From: an uncultured Thermoplasmata archaeon
GTDB lineage: Archaea > Thermoplasmatota > Poseidoniia > MGIII > CG-Epi1
NCBI GenBank assembly: GCA_963996465.1
Contig: CAXEHI010000014.1
Location: 11,089-75,088 of the forward strand
Direction of reading: 5' to 3'
DNA length: 64,000 bases
Every line of letters begins with the position of its first letter. Positions within the stretch are counted from its first letter, which is position 1. A program made the translations under genes and the position numbers. The notes under the pieces were generated by a model. It saw nothing but the letters and a program-made list of their open reading frames with translations. It was not told the DNA's origin and did not search any database. Positions 26,345 to 49,023 of this stretch are shown one piece after another.

Positions 26345-28642
26345 ATGAGTAAGCGCAATGATTTCGTCGGTTTTGTAGGTTATCGAAAGCAGAGAGAACC
26401 TTCATTCGTTCAACCAGCTCCTTTCACATCTTCTTGGAATCCTTTATTCAGCGTTTTGATTGTTTTTTGCGTTATTTTTTCAGGAGCTGCAATGTTATTC
26501 AGCCCCTTTGATGATGAAATGGACAATACATATCAGGTAGAATTTCTGAAGACTATGGTTTCAGAAAAGTCTAGAGATTCGCCTGCATTAATCGGTTACG
26601 AGTCTTGTATCGATTTGGAAGATAGATTGAAAACCAATGTTAAAGATGAAATGGTCACTACAGTAGGTTTAGGATATGGGTATGGTATTTCTCCAGAATT
26701 CATGGTCGATGTGGCAATGGACGACGGCACAGCTTTGGAAAGTGTAGACAGCCCTACTAGTGCATCTACCGGCTCATCTTCAAATCAGGAATTTTCTGGT
26801 ACAAACAATCAAGAACAGGATGTCGACGAAGGTGATTTCGTAAAAACAGATGGTGATTTCATTTACGTGTTGAATGATTGGGATTACCAAGTTTACAAGA
26901 ATTGGGGTTGGTCTTACGAATCAAAGAGTATTCTACATATCTTAGCGATACCCGAATTCGGACAAATTGAAAATACATCTTCTATAGCAATCGAAGGAAA
27001 TGCGAGAGAAATGCTCTTAGCGGGTGATAAAATGATAGTCTATTCAGACATTTCTACATGGGATATGCAAGAAGATCACATGCTTTTAGATTACATTCGT
27101 TCCGATGGTAATTATCGTGTCTATGAAATGACCAAAATGACAATTTTAGATATCTCTAACCGTTCCTCCCCACAAGTGAATCAAGAAGTATATATCGAAG
27201 GAAATTATCAGACTGCTAGAGAGGTAGATGGCACTGTTAGGATGGTGTCCTATGCATACTTAGATATTCCTGAGGTTTTAAGTTACATAAATTATGATTA
27301 TGAAGTTTTCTGGGCAGATGGTACGACAGATAGTGCTAGAGAAGACATGTGGCGTGAGGCTGCAACCTCTACCATAGAGCATAATAATAACATAATTGAC
27401 AAGGCTCCACTTTCTGATTTAGTTCCCGCAATTTATTATATGAATGAAGGCGATTTAGAGGAATTCAACTTCGCAACCGATGGCGATTCTGGTTGTGATA
27501 ATTTTGTTATATCTAGTGATGGAACTGGTGATGGTTTCACTTCAATCTTGACTATCGACTTAACCACAGATAATTTCAGTTTTGAAGCAGACCATATGAT
27601 GACCAATTATCCAACTATTTATTCTTCTTCTGATACTATGATTATTTCAGAAAATACTAATGATTGGTGGTGGTATATGTTGGATGAAACAGATTATACT
27701 GAAGCTACCAATATTCATACTTTCGATGTAAGTGGGATGGGGGATACAAAATATATTGCAAGCGGAAGGGTGGACGGTACTGTTTCTGGCCAATTCTCTC
27801 TTTCTGAGTACAATGACGATATACGTGTAGTTTCTACAACTGGAGAATGGAATCGTTGGTGGTTGGATAATCCAGAAGAATCAGAAACAATAGTTTGTGT
27901 CTTGCGTCAAGTTGAAAGTAGTCACGACTTATCTGAAGTGGGTAGGGTAGATGGAATTGCATTAGGAGAACGACTATGGTCTGCTCGTTTTGTTGACGAA
28001 AAGGCATACTTAGTCACTTTTAGAATTATAGATCCTCTTTGGATTATAGATTTAAGCAATCCTACTATGCCGACAATAGAAGGTGAATTAGAAGTTCCAG
28101 GAGTTTCTACATACATACACCCTTTGGATGGGGATAGATTACTAACTATAGGTTATGGCGGCGATTCAGAAGGTCTCGATTGGAGTACACAGATTTCTTT
28201 ATTCGATGTTAGCGATTCTAATAATCCAACATTATCTACTTCTTTATCCCTCATGCCTGCAGATGAGAATGGTGGTTGGAGTTGGGGTTGGAGTGAAGCA
28301 ACTTATGAACACAAAGCTTTCCAATATTGGAATGGTACTTTAGCTATACCAATGAGTACATACAAATACGATTGTGATGAGGATGGCTGGCGCTGTACTT
28401 ATGAGTACGTAACTAAATTAGTGTTAATTGACGTCACAGGTCATAATTTAGAATTAGATGGGGAGATCCATCATTCAGATTTTTACAATGAAGATAATAC
28501 TTATTGGTATAATATCGATGTTCGCAGGTCAATTTTCATGGGCGATTTTGTTTATTCAATAAGTAAAGGCGTAGTTCTAGTTCATAATCTTTCGGACTTT
28601 GAAATGAAGGATTCTGTAAACTTGGGCATCACTTCAAACTAA
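26345..28642 (+). CDS. Secreted/membrane-anchored beta-propeller-domain protein (Beta_propel family)
   Basis: 765 aa. An N-terminal TM/signal (LFSVLIVFCVIFSGAAMLF), a long acidic W/Y-rich ectodomain, and a C-terminal block KAYLVTFRIIDPLWIIDLSNPTMPTIEGELEVPGVSTYIHPLDGDRLLTIGYGG typical of archaeal surface beta-propeller proteins. Confidence 0.6.
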   Translation: MSKRNDFVGFVGYRKQREPSFVQPAPFTSSWNPLFSVLIVFCVIFSGAAMLFSPFDDEMDNTYQVEFLKTMVSEKSRDSPALIGYESCIDLEDRLKTNVKDEMVTTVGLGYGYGISPEFMVDVAMDDGTALESVDSPTSASTGSSSNQEFSGTNNQEQDVDEGDFVKTDGDFIYVLNDWDYQVYKNWGWSYESKSILHILAIPEFGQIENTSSIAIEGNAREMLLAGDKMIVYSDISTWDMQEDHMLLDYIRSDGNYRVYEMTKMTILDISNRSSPQVNQEVYIEGNYQTAREVDGTVRMVSYAYLDIPEVLSYINYDYEVFWADGTTDSAREDMWREAATSTIEHNNNIIDKAPLSDLVPAIYYMNEGDLEEFNFATDGDSGCDNFVISSDGTGDGFTSILTIDLTTDNFSFEADHMMTNYPTIYSSSDTMIISENTNDWWWYMLDETDYTEATNIHTFDVSGMGDTKYIASGRVDGTVSGQFSLSEYNDDIRVVSTTGEWNRWWLDNPEESETIVCVLRQVESSHDLSEVGRVDGIALGERLWSARFVDEKAYLVTFRIIDPLWIIDLSNPTMPTIEGELEVPGVSTYIHPLDGDRLLTIGYGGDSEGLDWSTQISLFDVSDSNNPTLSTSLSLMPADENGGWSWGWSEATYEHKAFQYWNGTLAIPMSTYKYDCDEDGWRCTYEYVTKLVLIDVTGHNLELDGEIHHSDFYNEDNTYWYNIDVRRSIFMGDFVYSISKGVVLVHNLSDFEMKDSVNLGITSN

Positions 28643-28679: not shown

Positions 28680-31600
28680 ATGAATCGTAACGTTTTGCCG
28701 CTTTTAGTGTGTGCAATACTCATTTCCACTCCATTATTTATGCCTCTTTCAGAGTCATCCAAAAACGACAAAGATGTTCAAGGCTGGTGGTCTAATTATT
28801 CTAGGGATAAAGATAGGGATGGAATCAGTGATGTATTAGAATGGAAATTACAACAAGGCGATCGTTTCTTTGATTCAGATTCAGCACGGGTTTTCATAAG
28901 ATACAATCATCACCCTACAGATTCTGATATTGAAAAATTAGAAAACTTAGGAATAGATGTAACTTATCGTGCTCAATATATCGATTTAGTTGCTACTACA
29001 ATGCCTCGTAATTTGGTCTATCCAGTTTCTACTTGGAACGGCGTTGTAATGCTCGATGACATCGGTAAAGCAGTTCCACATATGAATGAAGCCGTTCCTG
29101 CAATGGGCGTAAATCAAGTTTGGGAAAATTACGGTATTTATGGAGAAGGAATTTCTATCGCTATAGTTGACACTGGGGTCGATAATGCCCATGTTGGTTT
29201 AGATGATATGGATGATAATCAGTTCACTATGGATGATCTAAAAGTTGTAGCTTATTATGATGCAGTTCAAGATAATGTAGTATGTTCACCATGCTTACCT
29301 GGTGAATCTTTAGATAGTGGTACACACGGCACTCATGTTGCAGGAATAGCTGCAGGTACTGGTGATGGGGATGCAGCACCAGACGGATCACGCCATATCG
29401 GCGTCGCACCAAAAGCTAGCTTAGTCAACGTTCTTTCATGTTGTGATGGCGATATTGAAGACATTATCAGAGGCGTCGAATGGACAATAACTAATCAAAA
29501 ACTAGTAGAACCAAATATCAGAGTTATGACATCCAGTCTCGGCGAACAACAAATCGAATTTCATATCGATAATGATGGTAGCTCTGCTTGGAGCCAAGTT
29601 GTTGATGCCGCAGTAGAATCTGGCCTCGTAGTTACTTTGAGTGCAGGTAATGAATTCGGCTCAGCTACTGCAGCCGGTTGCAACACTATTGACTCACCTG
29701 GCGATTCAAGATTACCCATAACAGTCGCTTCTCTTGACAAAGATTTGAGTTTGGCAATATATAGTTCCAGAGGTTACACTTCAGACGGAAGGGTCAAGCC
29801 AGATGTCGCTGCTATAGGAAGTAGTATCATGGCCCCTAACAAAGGTACTGGAACAGGTTACACCAGTAAGAGTGGAACTAGTATGGCTACACCTTTGATG
29901 GCAGGTATTGTAGCTTTAACTTTAGAGGCTAATCCCGATTTAACTCCAACAGAAGTTAAGGATACATTAGTTGCAGGTTATTCTATCGAACGAGAAATAT
30001 TAGATGATGATATAGATGCAGCATCCAATAATTGCTCAATTGCAGAAACTAGACCAGATAATGAATACGGGTATGGTCAGGCTGATCCAAAAACTTTCGT
30101 AGATATTTCTGGAAATATCGATGCTTCTTTGAGTATCAACTGGTCGTTAGAACCTGAATATATGTTAGTGAATGATTCTTACGTAGAGGTCAAACCAAGA
30201 ATATACAACGGAAGTTGGATTCGGGGCGTATCTGATTCTTCTGGTCAATCAGTTAGCATTGGTGTCGAAGTTCGCTTTGGCGTTGATAGTTGGTCTTTAG
30301 CAGACGATTTGTCAGATAATGGTGATTGGAGTGAGTGGCAAATCCAAGTCCCCGAACAGACCAAAAAGGGTAATCAAACATTATATGCAAGATTAGTGGT
30401 CAATTCTGAACAAATGTCTCCTATGGCATCAGCATCCGTAGTTCTTCTTAATGAATATGATACTGATGATATTGGCTCTATTTCTTCTCTTTCAGATTCA
30501 ACAATTCTTTTACTAACAGTATTATTGCTCGCTTTAACTGTCGGAGTAGGTATTCCCGTATGGAAACGTTATCAAAAATTAGTTAACAGTAGTACAGAAA
30601 ATCAAAAACAGAATGTCAATCATCTCTTATTATTTAGATCTTTAACAGATGCTGCTCAGATTGCATTACTATACTGGACGGCTATGCGTTTCTTTTTACG
30701 GGATGAGGGGGCAAGCCAATCTTTAGTTTCCGCCTATTACGGAATCGCGCTATTGGTTTTGGGCGTCAGTTTAATTTTTTGGGGTCACATAGCCGATACA
30801 TACGGTTCTAGAAGAAAAATCCTTCTTTACACCTCACTTGGCTGTACTATACTCTATCTCTTTATTCCATTTTTAGGCATATATGGTACCATTTTCATTT
30901 CTATACTTCTATTGATGCTTCATGGTTCAGGTCGTATACCTAGGGCTATCGCTTCTGAATACTATCCAAATCGTCAAGGTGAATTTAATGGCGTTTTCTG
31001 GGGAATGTTCGCTTTGATATATTCCGTAGCATACCTCGCTGCTCCATCAATATATGAATCTCTTGGTATGAATGCAATAGTCTTGTTCTGTTTATTATTG
31101 AATATTGCTGCAGCATTCTGCGCATTCCGTTTAAACGAAGTCGATATTATGGCTGGAACATTAGTTACCGACTCATCTAATCATCTCAATTTTAATGTAA
31201 ATTCTTTCTCTTTGGATTCTCTACGTTTCAAGAATTCGTGGGTTAAATGGATTTTACTAACAGTTTTCTTAATCTATATTCCTCGAGGCGTCATCGTTTA
31301 CAATGCTCCGAATTATTTTGACGATATTGGCTATGATAGGAGTTTTGTCGGTGTAATAATGGGATATTCAGTTATAGCATCTGTTATTCTTTATCCATGG
31401 CTCGGTTCCATTTGTGATCGTTTAGGAGCTTGGCAGGTACTTCTCTGGTCTGCCTTATTGTATATTCTTCTATGGGGCACTTTCAGTTCTGCTGTATCTA
31501 CTCATCTATCTGCATTTATTTTTATAATTCCCGTAATTCCATTTTTACGTACTTCTAGAGATACATTAATGTCTCAATTAACTGCCTTAGATGAACGGAG

Positions 31601-31817
31601 TAAAGGTATGGGATGGGGTGTTTTCGTAGGGACACTCGGATATTCAGTTGGCGCGTTTTTCGCATCCGCAATGTTAGGTTGGTTAGATGCCAAAGATATG
31701 GAAATTCAAATGCAATATCTTTACACGTTTAGAGCCAGTTTAGTATTTCTTTTGTTGGCTTCTGTAGTTGCATGGTGGCTAAATAAGAATACAACCAAGG
31801 AGGCTACCGTTTGGTAG
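28680..31817 (+). CDS. Fusion protein: secreted subtilisin-like serine protease (peptidase S8) joined in-frame to a 12-TM MFS-type permease
   Basis: Signal peptide, then the S8 catalytic triad contexts AIVDTGV (Asp), HGTHVAG (His) and GTSMATP (Ser) in residues ~150-400. A TM anchor (ILLLTVLLLALTVGVGIPV) follows. The last ~450 aa carry about 12 TM helices and the MFS motif-A-like GHIADTYGSRRK between TM2 and TM3. There is no stop codon between the two parts. Confidence 0.75.
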   Translation: MNRNVLPLLVCAILISTPLFMPLSESSKNDKDVQGWWSNYSRDKDRDGISDVLEWKLQQGDRFFDSDSARVFIRYNHHPTDSDIEKLENLGIDVTYRAQYIDLVATTMPRNLVYPVSTWNGVVMLDDIGKAVPHMNEAVPAMGVNQVWENYGIYGEGISIAIVDTGVDNAHVGLDDMDDNQFTMDDLKVVAYYDAVQDNVVCSPCLPGESLDSGTHGTHVAGIAAGTGDGDAAPDGSRHIGVAPKASLVNVLSCCDGDIEDIIRGVEWTITNQKLVEPNIRVMTSSLGEQQIEFHIDNDGSSAWSQVVDAAVESGLVVTLSAGNEFGSATAAGCNTIDSPGDSRLPITVASLDKDLSLAIYSSRGYTSDGRVKPDVAAIGSSIMAPNKGTGTGYTSKSGTSMATPLMAGIVALTLEANPDLTPTEVKDTLVAGYSIEREILDDDIDAASNNCSIAETRPDNEYGYGQADPKTFVDISGNIDASLSINWSLEPEYMLVNDSYVEVKPRIYNGSWIRGVSDSSGQSVSIGVEVRFGVDSWSLADDLSDNGDWSEWQIQVPEQTKKGNQTLYARLVVNSEQMSPMASASVVLLNEYDTDDIGSISSLSDSTILLLTVLLLALTVGVGIPVWKRYQKLVNSSTENQKQNVNHLLLFRSLTDAAQIALLYWTAMRFFLRDEGASQSLVSAYYGIALLVLGVSLIFWGHIADTYGSRRKILLYTSLGCTILYLFIPFLGIYGTIFISILLLMLHGSGRIPRAIASEYYPNRQGEFNGVFWGMFALIYSVAYLAAPSIYESLGMNAIVLFCLLLNIAAAFCAFRLNEVDIMAGTLVTDSSNHLNFNVNSFSLDSLRFKNSWVKWILLTVFLIYIPRGVIVYNAPNYFDDIGYDRSFVGVIMGYSVIASVILYPWLGSICDRLGAWQVLLWSALLYILLWGTFSSAVSTHLSAFIFIIPVIPFLRTSRDTLMSQLTALDERSKGMGWGVFVGTLGYSVGAFFASAMLGWLDAKDMEIQMQYLYTFRASLVFLLLASVVAWWLNKNTTKEATVW

Positions 31818-32485
31818 CTGTCGCTATTACCTTATCTGAAGATAAATATTTTGAAAAATACGCATCTTGGCTTAGAGAGATAGATATCGAACCAGTACGA
31901 ATTACCAATCCAGATTCTCTTTCCGATTTCGATATATTAGTTCTTTCAGGAGGTGGCGATTTAAGTGTCAAAACTGGAGCTTATGACCAACCAGAAAGAA
32001 CAGATTTCCCTCTTCAATTCATAAAACCTGAACGGGACGAGTTAGAAATATCTCTTCTGAATAAAGCAACAGAAAATAAGATGCCAGTTTTAGGTATCTG
32101 CAGAGGTTTGCAAATAATCAACGTATATTGTGGAGGCACACTATGGCCAGATATCAGTGAAGGTAATTTCGATATTAAATTACATAGAAAACATTCTGGT
32201 GATGATGGAGATACAGAACACGAAGTAGATTTAGTCGATTCAAATTTCAATGTAACCAGTCATCATCATCTAGCTATCCGTAAGTTAGGTACTAATCTTT
32301 CCGCAATAGGCCATAGTGAAGATGGTATAATCGAGGCAGTTAAACATACAAAATTTCCATGGTTCGCTGTTCAATGGCATCCTGAAAGAACTTCAGAGGG
32401 CATGGGCCGTTCAATACCAAAAGAATGGCTTTTACAACAAATTAGAAATATTTCAAATATCCAAGGCCCAGATAGCGTCGCTTAA
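31811..32485 (+). CDS. Class I glutamine-amidotransferase-like / peptidase C26 (gamma-glutamyl hydrolase-type) protein
   Basis: Nucleophile-elbow motif MPVLGICRGLQIINV, a conserved His (VQWHPE) near the C-terminus, and 224 aa. It overlaps the stop of the protease-MFS gene by 7 nt. Confidence 0.65.
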   Translation: MVAVAITLSEDKYFEKYASWLREIDIEPVRITNPDSLSDFDILVLSGGGDLSVKTGAYDQPERTDFPLQFIKPERDELEISLLNKATENKMPVLGICRGLQIINVYCGGTLWPDISEGNFDIKLHRKHSGDDGDTEHEVDLVDSNFNVTSHHHLAIRKLGTNLSAIGHSEDGIIEAVKHTKFPWFAVQWHPERTSEGMGRSIPKEWLLQQIRNISNIQGPDSVA

Positions 32486-36901: not shown

Positions 36902-37652
36902 TTATTTTAATTTTATTATTTCATTTGCTAACTGAGCAATCTCTTCCGGTTTCAGAACTTCCCCTCTCAAATCCATAAATGGCAATTTTTCTATTTCAAG
37001 ATTTTCAAAACCAGTTTTTAGTGCATTTTTTAGCGTTTTTCTTCTATGTGTAAAAATCGCCCGAACTACTTTATCGAATACTTCCAAATCTTTTACTCCA
37101 TAATCTGGTATTTCCCTCTTCAATTCAACAACTACGGAATGTACTTTTGGCTGAGGCAAGAACATATTTCTACTTACTCTGAAAAGTTTCTTACATTTCA
37201 CATGCATAGAAGCCATCACAGTCAATCTTCCATACTGCTTAGTTCCATGCGTTGCTATCAATCTGTTTGCAAATTCTTCTTGAAACATAATTATAGCTCT
37301 ATCCCACTCTGATTCAAATAATCTAAAAAGAAGAGGAGATGATATCGAATAAGGTATGTTAGAAACGATGACATCTATGTTTGGAATATCAACTTTCATA
37401 ATATCGCCCTCAATTATCTTAATATTTTCTCCTCTAAGACGTTGCTTCATCACCGTGTATAACCATTTATCCTTTTCAACAGCCGTTAAACTTTTCCCCA
37501 TTCTTGCCAATCTTTCTGTTAAAATTCCTCTCCCCGGTCCTATCTCCAATATATCTTCATCATCAGTTATCTCTGCTGCATCAACTATACGTTGTGCAAT
37601 TTTCTCATCAACTAAAAAATTCTGGCCTAAGGCTTTTCTCCGTTTGTAGGAT
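36902..37652 (-). CDS. ksgA: 16S rRNA (adenine-N6,N6)-dimethyltransferase KsgA/Dim1/RsmA; the 5' end is unresolved
   Basis: KALGQNFLVD and EIGPGRGILTERL SAM-binding motifs. The ORF-track start (37708) lies inside the tRNA-Val gene, and no ATG/GTG/TTG exists in frame between the tRNA 3' end and the GQNFL motif, so the true start is unclear. Confidence 0.8.
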
Positions 37653-37728
37653 TGGTGGGCCGGGGCGGAATCGAACCGCCGATCTTCGCCTTGTAAGGGC
37701 GACGTCATAACCCCTAGACCACCGGCCC
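37653..37728 (-). tRNA. tRNA-Val (anticodon UAC), CCA encoded
   Basis: Hand-folded cloverleaf: acceptor GGGCCGG/CCGGCCC (7 bp), anticodon stem TCGCC/GGCGA with loop CTTACAA, T-arm GGCGG-TTCGATT-CCGCC, discriminator A plus CCA. It stands out as a GC-rich island in AT-rich DNA. Confidence 0.85.
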
Positions 37729-45321: not shown

Positions 45322-48300
45322 TTACGAACAACCAGTTGTTGCACCACAACCCAAACATTTGAAGCAACTACCATTAGGAACTAGTTTGAATTGTCCACAT
45401 TCTGGACAAGGATCTCCGGAATATCCCATCTTAATCGCTTCACTCGCAGTTTCATTTCCACCCCGAACATCCGTTGAAACAACATTCACATTTTCTAAAT
45501 CTGTAGTGTCATACATTGTATCAATCGTTCCAACATCATCTAAAGTCATCTGTACTTCGTGATTATCTGTGGTTTCTGAGCTAGGTCTCAATTTGTTTCG
45601 ACTTTCCCGTTCATTTTTTTCTTCAGCCGCAGTTCTCAAAGTATCATGCATCAAATCTTCCGGTGTAACTTGGATGCCCAAGTCTGCTCGTCCTAGATAA
45701 TTTATGGCTAAATCTCTAAATAAATAATCTATAACACTAGTGCTCATCTTTATTCTTTCATTTCCAATAACTGGGCCATTAGGTTCAAATCTGCTGAAGA
45801 CAAACGCATCCACAAATTCTTCCAGAGGCACTCCATGTTGAAGTCCAAGACTAACTGCTATAGCAAAACTATTCATTAACGAACGGAAAGCAGCACCTTC
45901 TTTGTGCATATTGATGAATATTTCACCTAGTGTTCCATCATCATATTCGCCCGTGCTCAAGAATATACTATGGCCAGCTATCTTAGCTTTCTGAGTATAT
46001 CCGCCTCTCTTGTTAGGCATTCTTCTTCTTTGCGCTATATATCTAGTTATGACTTTCTTGGCAACTGATTTTGCATTTGGAATAGGGAGGGATTCAGCTA
46101 GCATCTCTGCCGCAGCTCCAGGCGTCATCATTCCTTCAGGAATCATCATCTCTTCATCTTCCTCCATTTCTATCGCAGATGCAATTTCAAGCAATGCTCC
46201 AGACATCAAAGGTTGACTCAGTTTACTCGCATCTCTATATACTGCCATAGCTTTGTTCATCAATTTCCACGATAATTCATAAACTTCTTCAATATCTTCT
46301 ACAAGAACTTCATGCGGCATGTTTATCGTTTTCGATATTGCTCCACTTATGAATGGCTGAGCTGCCGCCATCATTCGAACATGAGCCTTATAGTCAATAG
46401 ATCGCATTCCATATTTACCACATTTATTGGCACAATCAAATACTGCAAGATGTTCTTCCTTGATATGAGGTGCATCTTCTATTGTAAGTTTACCAAAAAT
46501 ACGATTCTCAGCTTCCTCTATCTGTTGCTCTGAAAAACCCATATGTTCGAGTAATACAAACGTCGGATCATTCATCTGTTCATCCGTAAGTTTCAAATTC
46601 TTTTTACAGAATTCATCACCTATATTGAGGGGTGTAAACAACATTTTCATCGAAGTCAAACTAGCAACACGTTTTTCTAGTTCAGATAATACTTTTTCTG
46701 TAAATCCATAATTCGTTAATGTTTCATTATTGATATGTGGTGCCCCATCAAATTTTCCAGTTCCTATTATGTAATCTATAATCTCATCTCTTTCAGAATC
46801 TGAATATCCCAGTTTTTTCAACGCTAGAGGGACTGATTGATTTATTATTTTTAGAGATCCGCCGCCTGCTAATGTTTTAAATTTAATTAAAGCGAAATCA
46901 GGTTCTATTCCTGTAGTATCACAATCCATTACAATACCTATAGTGCCAGTAGGTGCAATCACTGTTGCTTGAGCATTTCTATATCCATATTTTTCACCCA
47001 TTTCTAATGCAGAATCCCATGCATTCTTAGCTGCATTTACTAAATAATCTGGGCAACTATCTGGATTTATTCCCTGAGGCGTTATTGTTAATCCTTCATA
47101 ATTTTCTGGCTTTTTATTATATGCAGCTCTACGGTGATTTCTAATCACTCTCAACATTTCATTTTTGTTATATTCGTATCTTTCAAATGTCCCTATAACT
47201 CCTGCCATTTCAGCACTAGTTGCATAACTTATCCCGCCTAATATTGCAGTAAGAGATCCACATATCGCATACGCACGAGGGTCATCATATGGTATACCCA
47301 TTCTCATTAACAACGATCCAATATTTGCATATCCTAATCCTAATGTTCGATATTCGTAGCTAAGGCGCGCTATCGCCTCGCTTGGAAATTGCGCCATCAG
47401 TACCGATATCTCTAGAACTACAGTCCATATTCTTACGGCATGTTCGTAGGCCTCAACATCGAATGTTTCCGTTTCTTCATCGTAAAAACTACCTAGATTC
47501 AAACTTGCTAAATTACATGCCGTATCATCTAAGAACATATATTCAGAACACGGATTACTGCCTCTTATTTTTCCATCCTTCGGACAAGTATGCCACTCAT
47601 TTATTGTTGAATGGTATTGTATTCCAGGATCTGCACATGACCATGCTGCCTGAGATATCTTCCTCCACAAGTCATTAGCCGGCATACTCTTACAAGGTTC
47701 AGCCACTCTATCTTCTTTCTTTGCCTTCACTAACTCAGTTCTCCAATAAAGGTTCCATACACCATCTTTGGCAACAGCTTCCATAAAGTCGTTCGTCACT
47801 CTTACAGAATTATTACTATTCTGTCCAGAAACAGTTTGATAAGCTTCACCTTCCCATTCAGTACCATATGTATCAAATTCTATAGATGTCCATCCCTGTT
47901 CACCTAATTCTAAAACTCTTCCTATCAAACTATTCGGTATGTGTGCCTTCATTGCCTTTTTCAAAGCTTTAGCTAGTTCTTGATTCTCATTTTGATCCAT
48001 CCTTTTTTCTGTATCTGGATATGCCTGTATCGCTGCCAATAATTCATTACAATGTTCTTGTATATGCAATGAACCAGAAACCAATCCCGCTACTTTCTCT
48101 TCTTCTTTAACTTTCCATTCTATGAATTCTTCTATATCTGGATGATCCATATCTAAACTAACCATTTTCGCTGCACGTCTAGTTGTTCCACCAGATTTGA
48201 TAGCTCCTGCAGCAGTGTCTCCTATTTTTAGAAACGACATCAATCCAGAACTTGTTCCACCACCAGACAGCGTTTCACCTTCACCCCTTATGTGTGAAAA

Positions 48301-49023
48301 ATTACTACCCGTTCCAGAACCATATTTGAACAGCCTAGCCTCCCTTGTCCATAGATCCATTATTCCCCCTTCTTTGACTAAGTCATCACTTACAGATTGA
48401 ATAAAACAAGCATGCGGTTGAGGTCTCTCATATGCATTTTTAGAATTTTCAACTTGACCCGTTTTTTGATTAACATATAGATGTCCTTGCGCCGGCCCCT
48501 CTATTCCATATGCCCAGTTAAGGCCGGTGTTGAACCATTGTGGAGAATTTGGCGATGCCATTTGTGCAGCCAACATATAGCATAACTCTTCATAGAATGC
48601 CTTTGCATCCTTTTCAGTTTTGAAATATTTATTTTTCCACCCCCAATATGTCCACGTTCCAGCTAATCTTCTAAATAATTCTTTTCCATCAGTTTCTTCT
48701 GTATATCTTTTTTCTTCTTTGATTTTGGAAAGTGCTTTTTCATCAGGTATACTTTTTGAAAGCCAAACGGGCACTCCACGTTCCTTTGATTTTTTTAGCT
48801 TCGCTGCAATTCCTGCCTTTCTAAAATATTTTTGTGACAGAACATTAGCCGCAACTCCACTAAAATTTTCTGGCAAGTTTACATTTTTCATTTCGAAAGC
48901 AGTACTTCCATCAATATTCAATATCTCTATATTTCTTTTTTTCCATCTTAATTTTTCAAACGGATTTTCCCCCTCTTTTGTAAATTTCCTACCTACCTTC
49001 AAACCTTTAGAATTCGGCGGCAC
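45322..49023 (-). CDS. nrdJ: Adenosylcobalamin-dependent (class II) ribonucleotide reductase, long form with a C-terminal zinc ribbon
   Basis: 1233 aa. The active-site region is [21 protein letters not shown], and the C-terminus is CPECGQ...[11 protein letters not shown]-typical blocks run throughout. Confidence 0.85.

Follow-up and report, generated by a model that had tools for sequence, protein, structure and literature searches.

The stretch of DNA analysed here (64,000 nucleotides of contig CAXEHI010000014.1, positions 11,089 to 75,088, hereafter the window) comes from an uncultured archaeon of Marine Group III (MGIII, class Poseidoniia), placed by this analysis in the bathypelagic CG-Bathy1 lineage, and its gene content, with PheRS, primase, RNase HII, Pus10 and gyrase genes, is archaeal. 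It contains a gene for a protein of 1045 amino acids that is predicted to join a secreted subtilisin-like protease (Peptidase S8) to a complete permease of the major facilitator superfamily (MFS). An original prediction, made by reading the sequence, had described one continuous open reading frame (ORF) for both modules; indeed, the frame contains no internal stop and both modules are matched by Pfam profiles. From the N- to the C-terminus, the parts are a signal peptide, a propeptide-like region, the S8 domain, an all-beta domain, a single transmembrane (TM) helix that we call TM0, and a twelve-helix MFS core (Table 1). The spacers are short, with about 15 residues between the beta domain and TM0 and about 17 between TM0 and TM1; the protease would therefore have to sit near the membrane, beside the N-domain of the carrier.

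The ectodomain is a predicted member of the Peptidase S8 family (subtilases), by profile as well as by catalytic triad. The match to PF00082 (161.9 bits against a cut-off of 21.8, E = 2.7e-47) covers the whole profile, positions 1-288. The Asp-His-Ser order is intact in the three motifs that had been read behind the signal peptide, AIVDTGV (Asp164), HGTHVAG (His216) and GTSMATP (Ser401), as is the oxyanion Asn324, and all four residues are invariant across 12 relatives (alignment A1). The best NCBIfam match of this part is the mycosin model TIGR03921; assignment to the mycosins, the serine proteases of the type VII secretion system, was rejected because the score is far under the equivalog cut-off (69.5 versus 278.75 bits). 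By sequence, Tk-SP (3afg) is the nearest relative of known structure (E = 8e-34). An AlphaFold model of the full-length protein has low overall confidence (predicted local distance difference test, pLDDT, of 59) and is locally confident in residues 68-126 and 485-590; its best fold matches are unprocessed pro-forms, namely ProN-Tk-SP (3afg), Pro-subtilisin E and Pro-Tk-subtilisin. From the local model and these pro-form matches we infer that residues ~28-140 form a propeptide. The fold alignment with ProN-Tk-SP, for which residue ranges were not reported, spans 586 columns and is thus long enough for a propeptide, a subtilisin domain and a C-terminal beta domain.

The C-terminal module is a predicted MFS member, for which profiles, helix count and motif A all speak. 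MFS_1 (PF07690) matches within the C-terminal 400 residues at 78.1 bits against a cut-off of 33.4 (E = 7.5e-22), and MFS_1_like (PF12832) matches residues 670-940 at 47.3 bits against 25.2 (E = 2e-12). The anchor and the roughly 12 following helices that had been noticed at first were found again by hydropathy and by AlphaFold; the model of residues 601-1045, computed from a family alignment, is confident (pLDDT 86.8, predicted TM-score 0.87) and shows 13 helices arranged as TM0 plus 6+6. When this model was compared with solved MFS transporters by Foldseek, TM-scores were 0.56-0.68 normalised to the query and up to 0.76 normalised to the target. Motif A does lie between TM2 and TM3, as had been proposed, and its G702, D706 and R711 do not vary within the module's family (alignment A2); GSICDRLGA (residues 909-917) reads as its counterpart in the second half. 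Predicted cytoplasmic loops hold 17 Lys or Arg residues versus 3 in the external loops. Because of this bias and of the 1+12 helix count, the model is consistent with a protease outside the cell and an MFS core in the canonical N-in/C-in orientation, TM0 being the odd helix that would solve the topology problem.

Table 1. Features of the fusion gene and its direct neighbours (window coordinates; aa, amino acids).
Feature	Coordinates	Strand	Basis
S8 protease-TM0-MFS fusion gene, 1045 aa	28680..31817	+	ORF listing and Pfam; stop codon counted in coordinates
Predicted Sec-type signal peptide, aa 1-27 (MNRN / hydrophobic core / SES)	28680..28760	+	Hydropathy peak at residues 2-27 and sequence reading, no dedicated predictor
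Propeptide-like N-terminal region, aa ~28-140, with beta-alpha-beta elements at 68-126	28761..29099	+	Secondary structure of model m4bfd8cee68f0, local pLDDT 67-91
Peptidase S8 catalytic domain, aa 155-466	29142..30077	+	Pfam PF00082, E = 2.7e-47
Catalytic and oxyanion codons Asp164, His216, Asn324, Ser401	29169-29171, 29325-29327, 29649-29651, 29880-29882	+
All-beta C-terminal part of the ectodomain, aa ~480-592	30117..30455	+	Predicted beta strands at 485-590, pLDDT 80-92
TM0, single anchor helix, aa ~606-628, followed by cytoplasmic KRYQK	30495..30563	+	Strongest hydropathy peak (2.65); helix 6-36 of the TM0+MFS model
12-TM MFS core (type B), aa ~640-1038	30597..31793	+	Pfam MFS_1 and MFS_1_like, AlphaFold, Foldseek
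MFS motif A, GHIADTYGSRRK, aa 702-713, in the TM2-TM3 cytoplasmic loop	30783..30818	+	Read from the sequence
Upstream neighbour, membrane-anchored or secreted beta-propeller protein (PF09826)	26345..28642	+	Pfam, E = 4.9e-107; ends 37 nt before the fusion gene
Downstream neighbour, Peptidase_C26 / class-I glutamine amidotransferase-like	31811..32485	+	Pfam, E = 3.4e-34

That no stop separates the modules was borne out by independent assemblies, in which the continuous frame is kept. The species-representative genome "Marine Group III euryarchaeote CG-Bathy1" (L009) carries an ortholog that is 95% identical over all 1045 residues and has the same flanking genes, and a separate ENA SPAdes assembly (L008) carries an 87%-identical ortholog of 1038 residues, with the C26 and PheRS-beta genes downstream of it as in the window. 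Several further full-length members of 1045 residues belong to the 90%-identity cluster, and the contigs number about 20 in all (from NCBI, JGI, ENA and Logan). Between orthologs, indels occur at the junction and in the central loop of the permease; they measure 2 and 9 codons and are in frame. The junction DNA is free of long homopolymers, and a separate permease would find no in-frame ATG to start from between Met582 and Met668. Ratios of nonsynonymous to synonymous substitution rates (dN/dS, Nei-Gojobori) were as follows: S8 core, 0.04-0.055; each MFS half, 0.03-0.06; beta domain, 0.05-0.21; TM0 with linker, 0.25-0.40; central loop, 0.3-0.6. The permease half is constrained as strongly as the catalytic domain, and both are under strong purifying selection. 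We are therefore highly confident that the gene encodes a real bifunctional S8-MFS fusion.

When the protease half was searched against 5.8 billion proteins, over 100 close relatives were found, most of them 1164-1272 residues long and with both S8 and MFS domains; some bear the automatic JGI label "subtilisin family serine protease/MFS family permease". We classified the C-terminal architecture at 80 loci of GTDB species-representative genomes from Marine Group II (MGII) and MGIII. The protease is fused to an AmpG-like MFS module (hereafter type A) at ~62 of the 80 and to a module like that of the window (type B) at one; ~12 loci end in a single C-terminal TM helix, and the rest are cut by contig ends. 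Orthologs thus do not always occur as two genes, a point on which the original prediction had hung: fused relatives are widespread, and fusion is the usual state of this protease in MGII (Poseidoniales/Thalassarchaeaceae) and MGIII rather than a peculiarity of the window. The architecture is ancient and has been retained over a deep archaeal radiation. Across lineages the protease halves are 50-74% identical, and the MFS half of the window has no detectable similarity to the type A halves (BLAST E > 0.2). Type A modules match Acatn and BT1 in Pfam, and TIGR00901 (AmpG, E = 3e-34) and RhtX/FptX (E = 1e-27) in NCBIfam, the AmpG score being under the curated cut-off (118 versus 350 bits). Their best solved relatives are AmpG (PDB, E = 6e-14) and the acetyl-CoA transporter, and their central loop has an insertion with additional hydrophobic segments. 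Characterised members of the AmpG and RhtX/FptX family import peptide- or amide-bearing compounds.

The single-helix orthologs were considered as a split form of the same system, with the permease encoded next door, and this was rejected, as no MFS gene is adjacent in L001-L003. A Lactamase_B gene lies directly downstream in these three loci, and a few genes downstream in the fused MGIII-Epi loci L004/L005. Several protease-only orthologs (L001 8001-9833, L030, L032, L039) end in a tail that looks like a sorting signal, "...SPG[LP]PL...ALRRRD". By eye, it resembles a PG-x-P motif followed by a hydrophobic helix and RRRD, and one of these proteins has an automatic JGI MYXO-CTERM label; anchoring of the PGF-CTERM/MYXO-CTERM kind found no support from profiles, the tails matching no such NCBIfam model even at E <= 1.

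Finding relatives of the type B module depended on the search method. An alignment-based homology search with the MFS module gave 8 proteins, and a word-index search with the module alone gave none, missing even the identical protein P0001; word-index negatives are thus unreliable for such TM-rich queries, and relatives were recovered by an exhaustive HMMER search. In this search (phmmer against 1.84 billion representatives), only 56 matches reached E <= 1e-3. The best ones (P0121-P0128, E = 1e-63 to 1e-25, 27-36% identity) come from archaea and are 450-850 residues long, with no type A fusion among them. In these relatives a TM0+MFS cassette stands behind nothing, behind a signal peptide and an unknown beta-rich ectodomain, or behind a PQQ-like beta-propeller, and two of them are located in clearly archaeal gene contexts. 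Three motifs are common to the members: PRG where TM7 ends, CDRxGAERV in the loop between TM8 and TM9, and T..(D/E)ER in that between TM10 and TM11; alignment A2 has 21 invariant columns. The sequence evidence thus assigns the window module to a rare archaeal subfamily with 13 TM helices and N-terminal ectodomains, unnamed so far and defined in this analysis as type B. TM0 of the window aligns with TM0 of the family, with the common pattern LT...G[IV]G..W..RY, which argues that the whole TM0+MFS cassette was the swapped unit, with a breakpoint just after the beta domain near residue 595.

We also considered whether the window module could be a diverged copy of the AmpG-like one. This was rejected on the BLAST result given above and because its nearest relatives are other archaeal ectodomain-MFS proteins. 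Moreover, a stand-alone gene with TM0 and type B only is annotated from a metagenome-assembled genome (MAG) of the Thalassarchaeaceae, a family whose own S8 fusions carry type A, which again argues against a diverged type A module. The window protein has no match to PF13000, PF03092 or TIGR00901, the Pfam and NCBIfam profiles for the AmpG/PAT family (TC 2.A.1.25). The antiporter motif C of TM5 (G-x8-G-x3-G-P-x2-G-G) is absent from the window protein as judged by eye, with no profile test: its TM5 reads ...SVAYLAAPSIYES..., with no G-P...G-G, and the family consensus at this site is AGxIY (alignment A2).

Type B ectodomains elsewhere in archaea are mostly unrelated, beta-rich and devoid of Pfam matches (P0121, P0123, P0124, P0127/P0177 at L089 693-2642, P0134 at L090 7001-9328); in P0128, a PQQ-like beta-propeller (PQQ_2) is joined to the module. 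The family looks like a general platform of ectodomain plus carrier that seems to be undescribed. The PRG at the outer end of TM7 and an external helix with NYFDDIGYD (residues 868-886, nucleotides 31281-31337) are conserved throughout the family, including in members that have no ectodomain, and Tyr879 and Gly884 in this helix are invariant in alignment A2. MFS carriers are seldom conserved in this way on their outer side, and the segment may be an external gate or a docking site.

A phylogeny of the ectodomain was built by quick neighbour-joining with midpoint rooting and no support values, and the order of events drawn from it is therefore inferential. Type A fusions fall on both sides of the midpoint root, in an MGII clade and in an MGIII-Epi clade; the window and L009 sequences are sister to the MGIII-Epi type A fusions, and TM-only forms appear in at least three places. 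An evolutionary scenario may be suggested: the ancestral form was most likely a fusion of S8 with an AmpG-like MFS, and the cassette of TM0 and MFS was most likely replaced once, in the CG-Bathy1 lineage, by the non-orthologous 13-TM type B. Most parsimoniously, several other lineages reduced the cassette to a bare TM anchor.

The genes on either side had been taken as a sign of a peptide-scavenging lifestyle. Both are present, the beta-propeller protein upstream (E ~5e-107) and the C26 peptidase downstream (E ~3e-34), and the support they lend to scavenging is weak, as the adjacencies are found only in the closest lineage and the C26 protein, which has no signal peptide, is probably cytoplasmic. 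The propeller adjacency is kept in L009, and L008 has an unannotated cut gene of 464 residues at the same position; these two loci alone share the propeller and C26 adjacencies, the MGIII-Epi and MGII loci having other neighbours. The TTG start of the C26 gene (31811) overlaps the TAG stop of the fusion gene, and AAGGAGG lies 8 nt upstream of this start (31797-31817), which suggests that the two genes are co-transcribed and translationally coupled, with a Shine-Dalgarno-like site in use in this archaeon. No conserved operon partner was found among the lineages compared, where neighbourhoods differ, and none of these lineages has biosynthetic or precursor genes beside the fusion gene. A scan for promoters and terminators returned fewer matches than shuffled sequence, using bacterial models on an archaeal host. 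The propeller next to the S8-type B gene (PF09826) is of a different kind from that fused to type B in P0128; propeller ectodomains may work with type B carriers, or this may be coincidence.

Two further features of the window were noted away from the fusion gene, both on the reverse strand. A tRNA-Val gene (anticodon TAC, 37653..37728) overlaps the 5' end of a called KsgA/Dim1-like ORF (36902..37708; whole segment 36902-37728), the first ~20 codons of which are probably untranslated, with the true start further downstream. At 45322-49023 lies a class II B12-dependent ribonucleotide reductase that is unusually long (1233 residues) and has a C-terminal TSCPD domain; its barrel domain is matched in two stretches, which could reflect an insertion such as an intein.

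What could be the function of such a protein? We propose that it couples proteolysis to uptake, a plausible reading that we hold at close to evenly balanced. The fusion protein would be exported through its signal peptide, which would place a Tk-SP-like subtilase (propeptide, catalytic and beta domains) on the outer face of the membrane; TM0 would cross the membrane and lead into a functional 12-helix MFS with N-in/C-in topology. The tethered protease would cut polypeptides at the cell surface, and the MFS, a few nanometres away and at 1:1 stoichiometry, would import small products, be they short peptides, amino acids or organic acids of another kind, before diffusion in dilute seawater removed them. 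Which way the MFS transports, what it carries and whether the two modules work together are the conjectural parts of this proposal. Import would be the favoured direction because AmpG-like importer modules sit on the orthologous protease in relatives, because type B does not have the TM5 antiporter motif C, because no biosynthetic or precursor genes accompany the fusion gene in any lineage compared, and because the hosts are protein-scavenging heterotrophs with highly transcribed S08A peptidases. Indeed, S08A peptidases rank with the most highly transcribed genes in deep-sea MGII/MGIII (PMC4660358), and each MGII MAG has between one and four genes for extracellular S8 enzymes (PMC6864105).

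Several observations count against coupled proteolysis and uptake. About 12 of the 80 orthologs have neither an MFS module nor an adjacent MFS gene, so that the permease is not obligatory for the protease; the interchangeability of the MFS type would fit a scaffold role equally; and, once exported, the protease might release itself by self-cleavage. The full-length model, at its pLDDT, is too poor for any interface between protease and permease to be claimed. The type B module matches no characterised MFS subfamily, and no PTR2 family (POT/PTR2) appears among the Pfam or NCBIfam matches at E <= 0.01. Its best PDB matches by sequence are EmrD, NorA and SV2A (E ~1e-5). By fold, the best matches are carriers of carboxylates and organic anions (SfMCT, OxlT, MCT1/2 with basigin or embigin, VGLUT2), at 14-15% identity, and they give no more than a hint of the substrate class. 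The replacement scenario, finally, inherits the limits of its tree.

The main rival is that the MFS mostly holds the protease at the surface, or carries an unrelated substrate, the fusion serving co-expression or membrane retention. This is unlikely in our view, if clearly to be reckoned with. Single-TM orthologs in at least three places of the tree show that one helix suffices to anchor this protease, with no MFS gene beside it; yet the 12-TM module has been kept at dN/dS 0.03-0.06, with motif A and other invariant residues, and the fusion has persisted over the divergence of MGII and MGIII. Similarly, the occupation of one position by two unrelated MFS subfamilies would suit an anchor, as would the many unrelated ectodomains borne by type B, which may make it a general-purpose membrane platform; however, the lost module was apparently replaced by a complete MFS and not by a plain anchor.

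Export is an improbable alternative. The MFS would release a small precursor or metabolite to be processed by the outward-facing subtilase, in the manner of the lantibiotic LanT/LanP pair or of the peptidase-containing ABC (ATP-binding cassette) exporters. S8 proteases do act as extracellular leader peptidases in several peptide-natural-product systems, and TM-only orthologs have a weak match of the PatA/PatG type (E ~1e-4); however, neighbourhoods vary by lineage, with no conserved biosynthetic or precursor genes nearby, and MFS carriers do not pass polypeptides. Among the closest PDB sequence matches of type B are EmrD and NorA, which export drugs, but these matches are marginal (E ~1e-5) and cover half-domains only, motif C is missing from TM5 (AYLAAPSIYES in the query), and the type A modules of the relatives are in an importer family.

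We give slightly less credit still to a regulatory role that is not mainly nutritional, in which the protein is a sensor or "transceptor", or the protease switches the transporter by cleavage. The architecture alone is compatible with this, and the fast-evolving linker and central loop (dN/dS 0.25-0.6) would suit cleavable or regulatory segments; on the other hand, the protein has short cytoplasmic loops, a C-terminus of 10 residues and no cytoplasmic signalling domain, and the gene neighbourhood offers no regulatory hints. Last, a sequencing or assembly error fusing a protease gene to a permease gene, which the unusual architecture and nothing more would recommend, was rejected as vanishingly improbable, since the frame is identical in independent assemblies 5% and 13% apart in protein and in ~20 contigs from four sources, hundreds of relatives are fused, junction indels are multiples of three in DNA with no long homopolymers, and the selection pattern argues against it.

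If proteolysis and uptake are coupled, a broader picture can be drawn, which we regard as doubtful in its full extent. The planktonic Poseidoniia would share an ancient and lineage-wide "protease-permease" machine in which the subtilase, placed over the outward mouth of the MFS, hands its products in; selection for coupling would have driven the replacement, in CG-Bathy1, of a lost AmpG-like carrier by type B, and type B itself would be a platform for ectodomain-assisted uptake.

The fusion had been thought uncharacterised, and so far this holds: no description of a subtilase-MFS fusion was found in the full-text literature, papers on MGII/MGIII genomics included and subscription-only literature lying outside the scope. 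It is not peculiar to the window, however, and JGI already labels such fusions automatically. Apart from these automatic two-domain labels, the CG-Bathy1 ortholog is named "hypothetical protein" in GenBank and "Uncharacterized protein" in UniRef. Both domain families are well known, and so is the paradigm in which surface protease and peptide transporter work together. The covalent architecture of extracellular S8, TM0 and MFS and its breadth in the Poseidoniia appear to be undescribed, as do the non-orthologous replacement of the carrier and the 13-TM type B family with its varied ectodomains. As far as we found, enzyme-MFS fusions with an extracellular catalytic domain are likewise undescribed.

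Few heterotrophs of the ocean are as abundant as the MGII and MGIII archaea, which are uncultured, and the role of these archaea in the turnover of dissolved and particulate protein has been deduced mostly from counts of peptidase genes. If the proposed coupling is true, joining a protease to a carrier would be a molecular answer to the loss of extracellular enzyme products by diffusion in very dilute water. The fusion is also a single expressible gene with which the specificity of the protease, the transported substrate and the benefit of the fused over the split state could be probed. For transporter biology, it offers two unrelated MFS modules at the same position behind an orthologous protease, and one of them, type B, occurs with many ectodomains.

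Known systems resemble parts of this protein. Tk-SP of Thermococcus kodakarensis (PDB 3afg) is also archaeal, and alignment length and the predicted all-beta domain suggest the same order of N-propeptide, subtilisin and C-terminal beta domain; unlike the fusion protein, Tk-SP is soluble and secreted, has no membrane helix or transporter, and is only ~24% identical. The mycosin MycP is a subtilase with a C-terminal TM helix that is physically tied to a membrane transport machine, but it is bound non-covalently, to a protein-export complex of Actinobacteria and not to an MFS carrier. On the carrier side, the type A modules of relatives belong to or near the AmpG/PAT importers (TC 2.A.1.25; PDB 8zgz; including RhtX/FptX), whereas type B of the window does not match this family; these archaea have no murein, so that the substrate must differ. 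The MCT1-basigin and MCT2-embigin complexes (PDB 7ckr, 9l0b), among the best fold matches of TM0+MFS, also combine an MFS carrier with one extra TM helix that bears an extracellular domain; there, however, helix and ectodomain form a separate, non-enzymatic chaperone subunit, in animals, at 12-15% identity.

For the system as a whole, the nearest functional parallel is lactococcal PrtP with Opp/DtpT, in which a surface-tethered subtilase makes peptides that dedicated membrane transporters import. There the proteins are separate, PrtP is anchored to the cell wall and uptake is by ABC and POT transporters, whereas here all would be done by one polypeptide with a different type of MFS. The best-known protease covalently fused to a membrane transporter is found in PCAT1 and the other C39 bacteriocin ABC exporters. 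In those, a cytoplasmic cysteine peptidase joined to an ABC exporter cleaves leader peptides; in the protein described here, an extracellular serine protease would be joined to a secondary carrier, for which import is the likelier direction.

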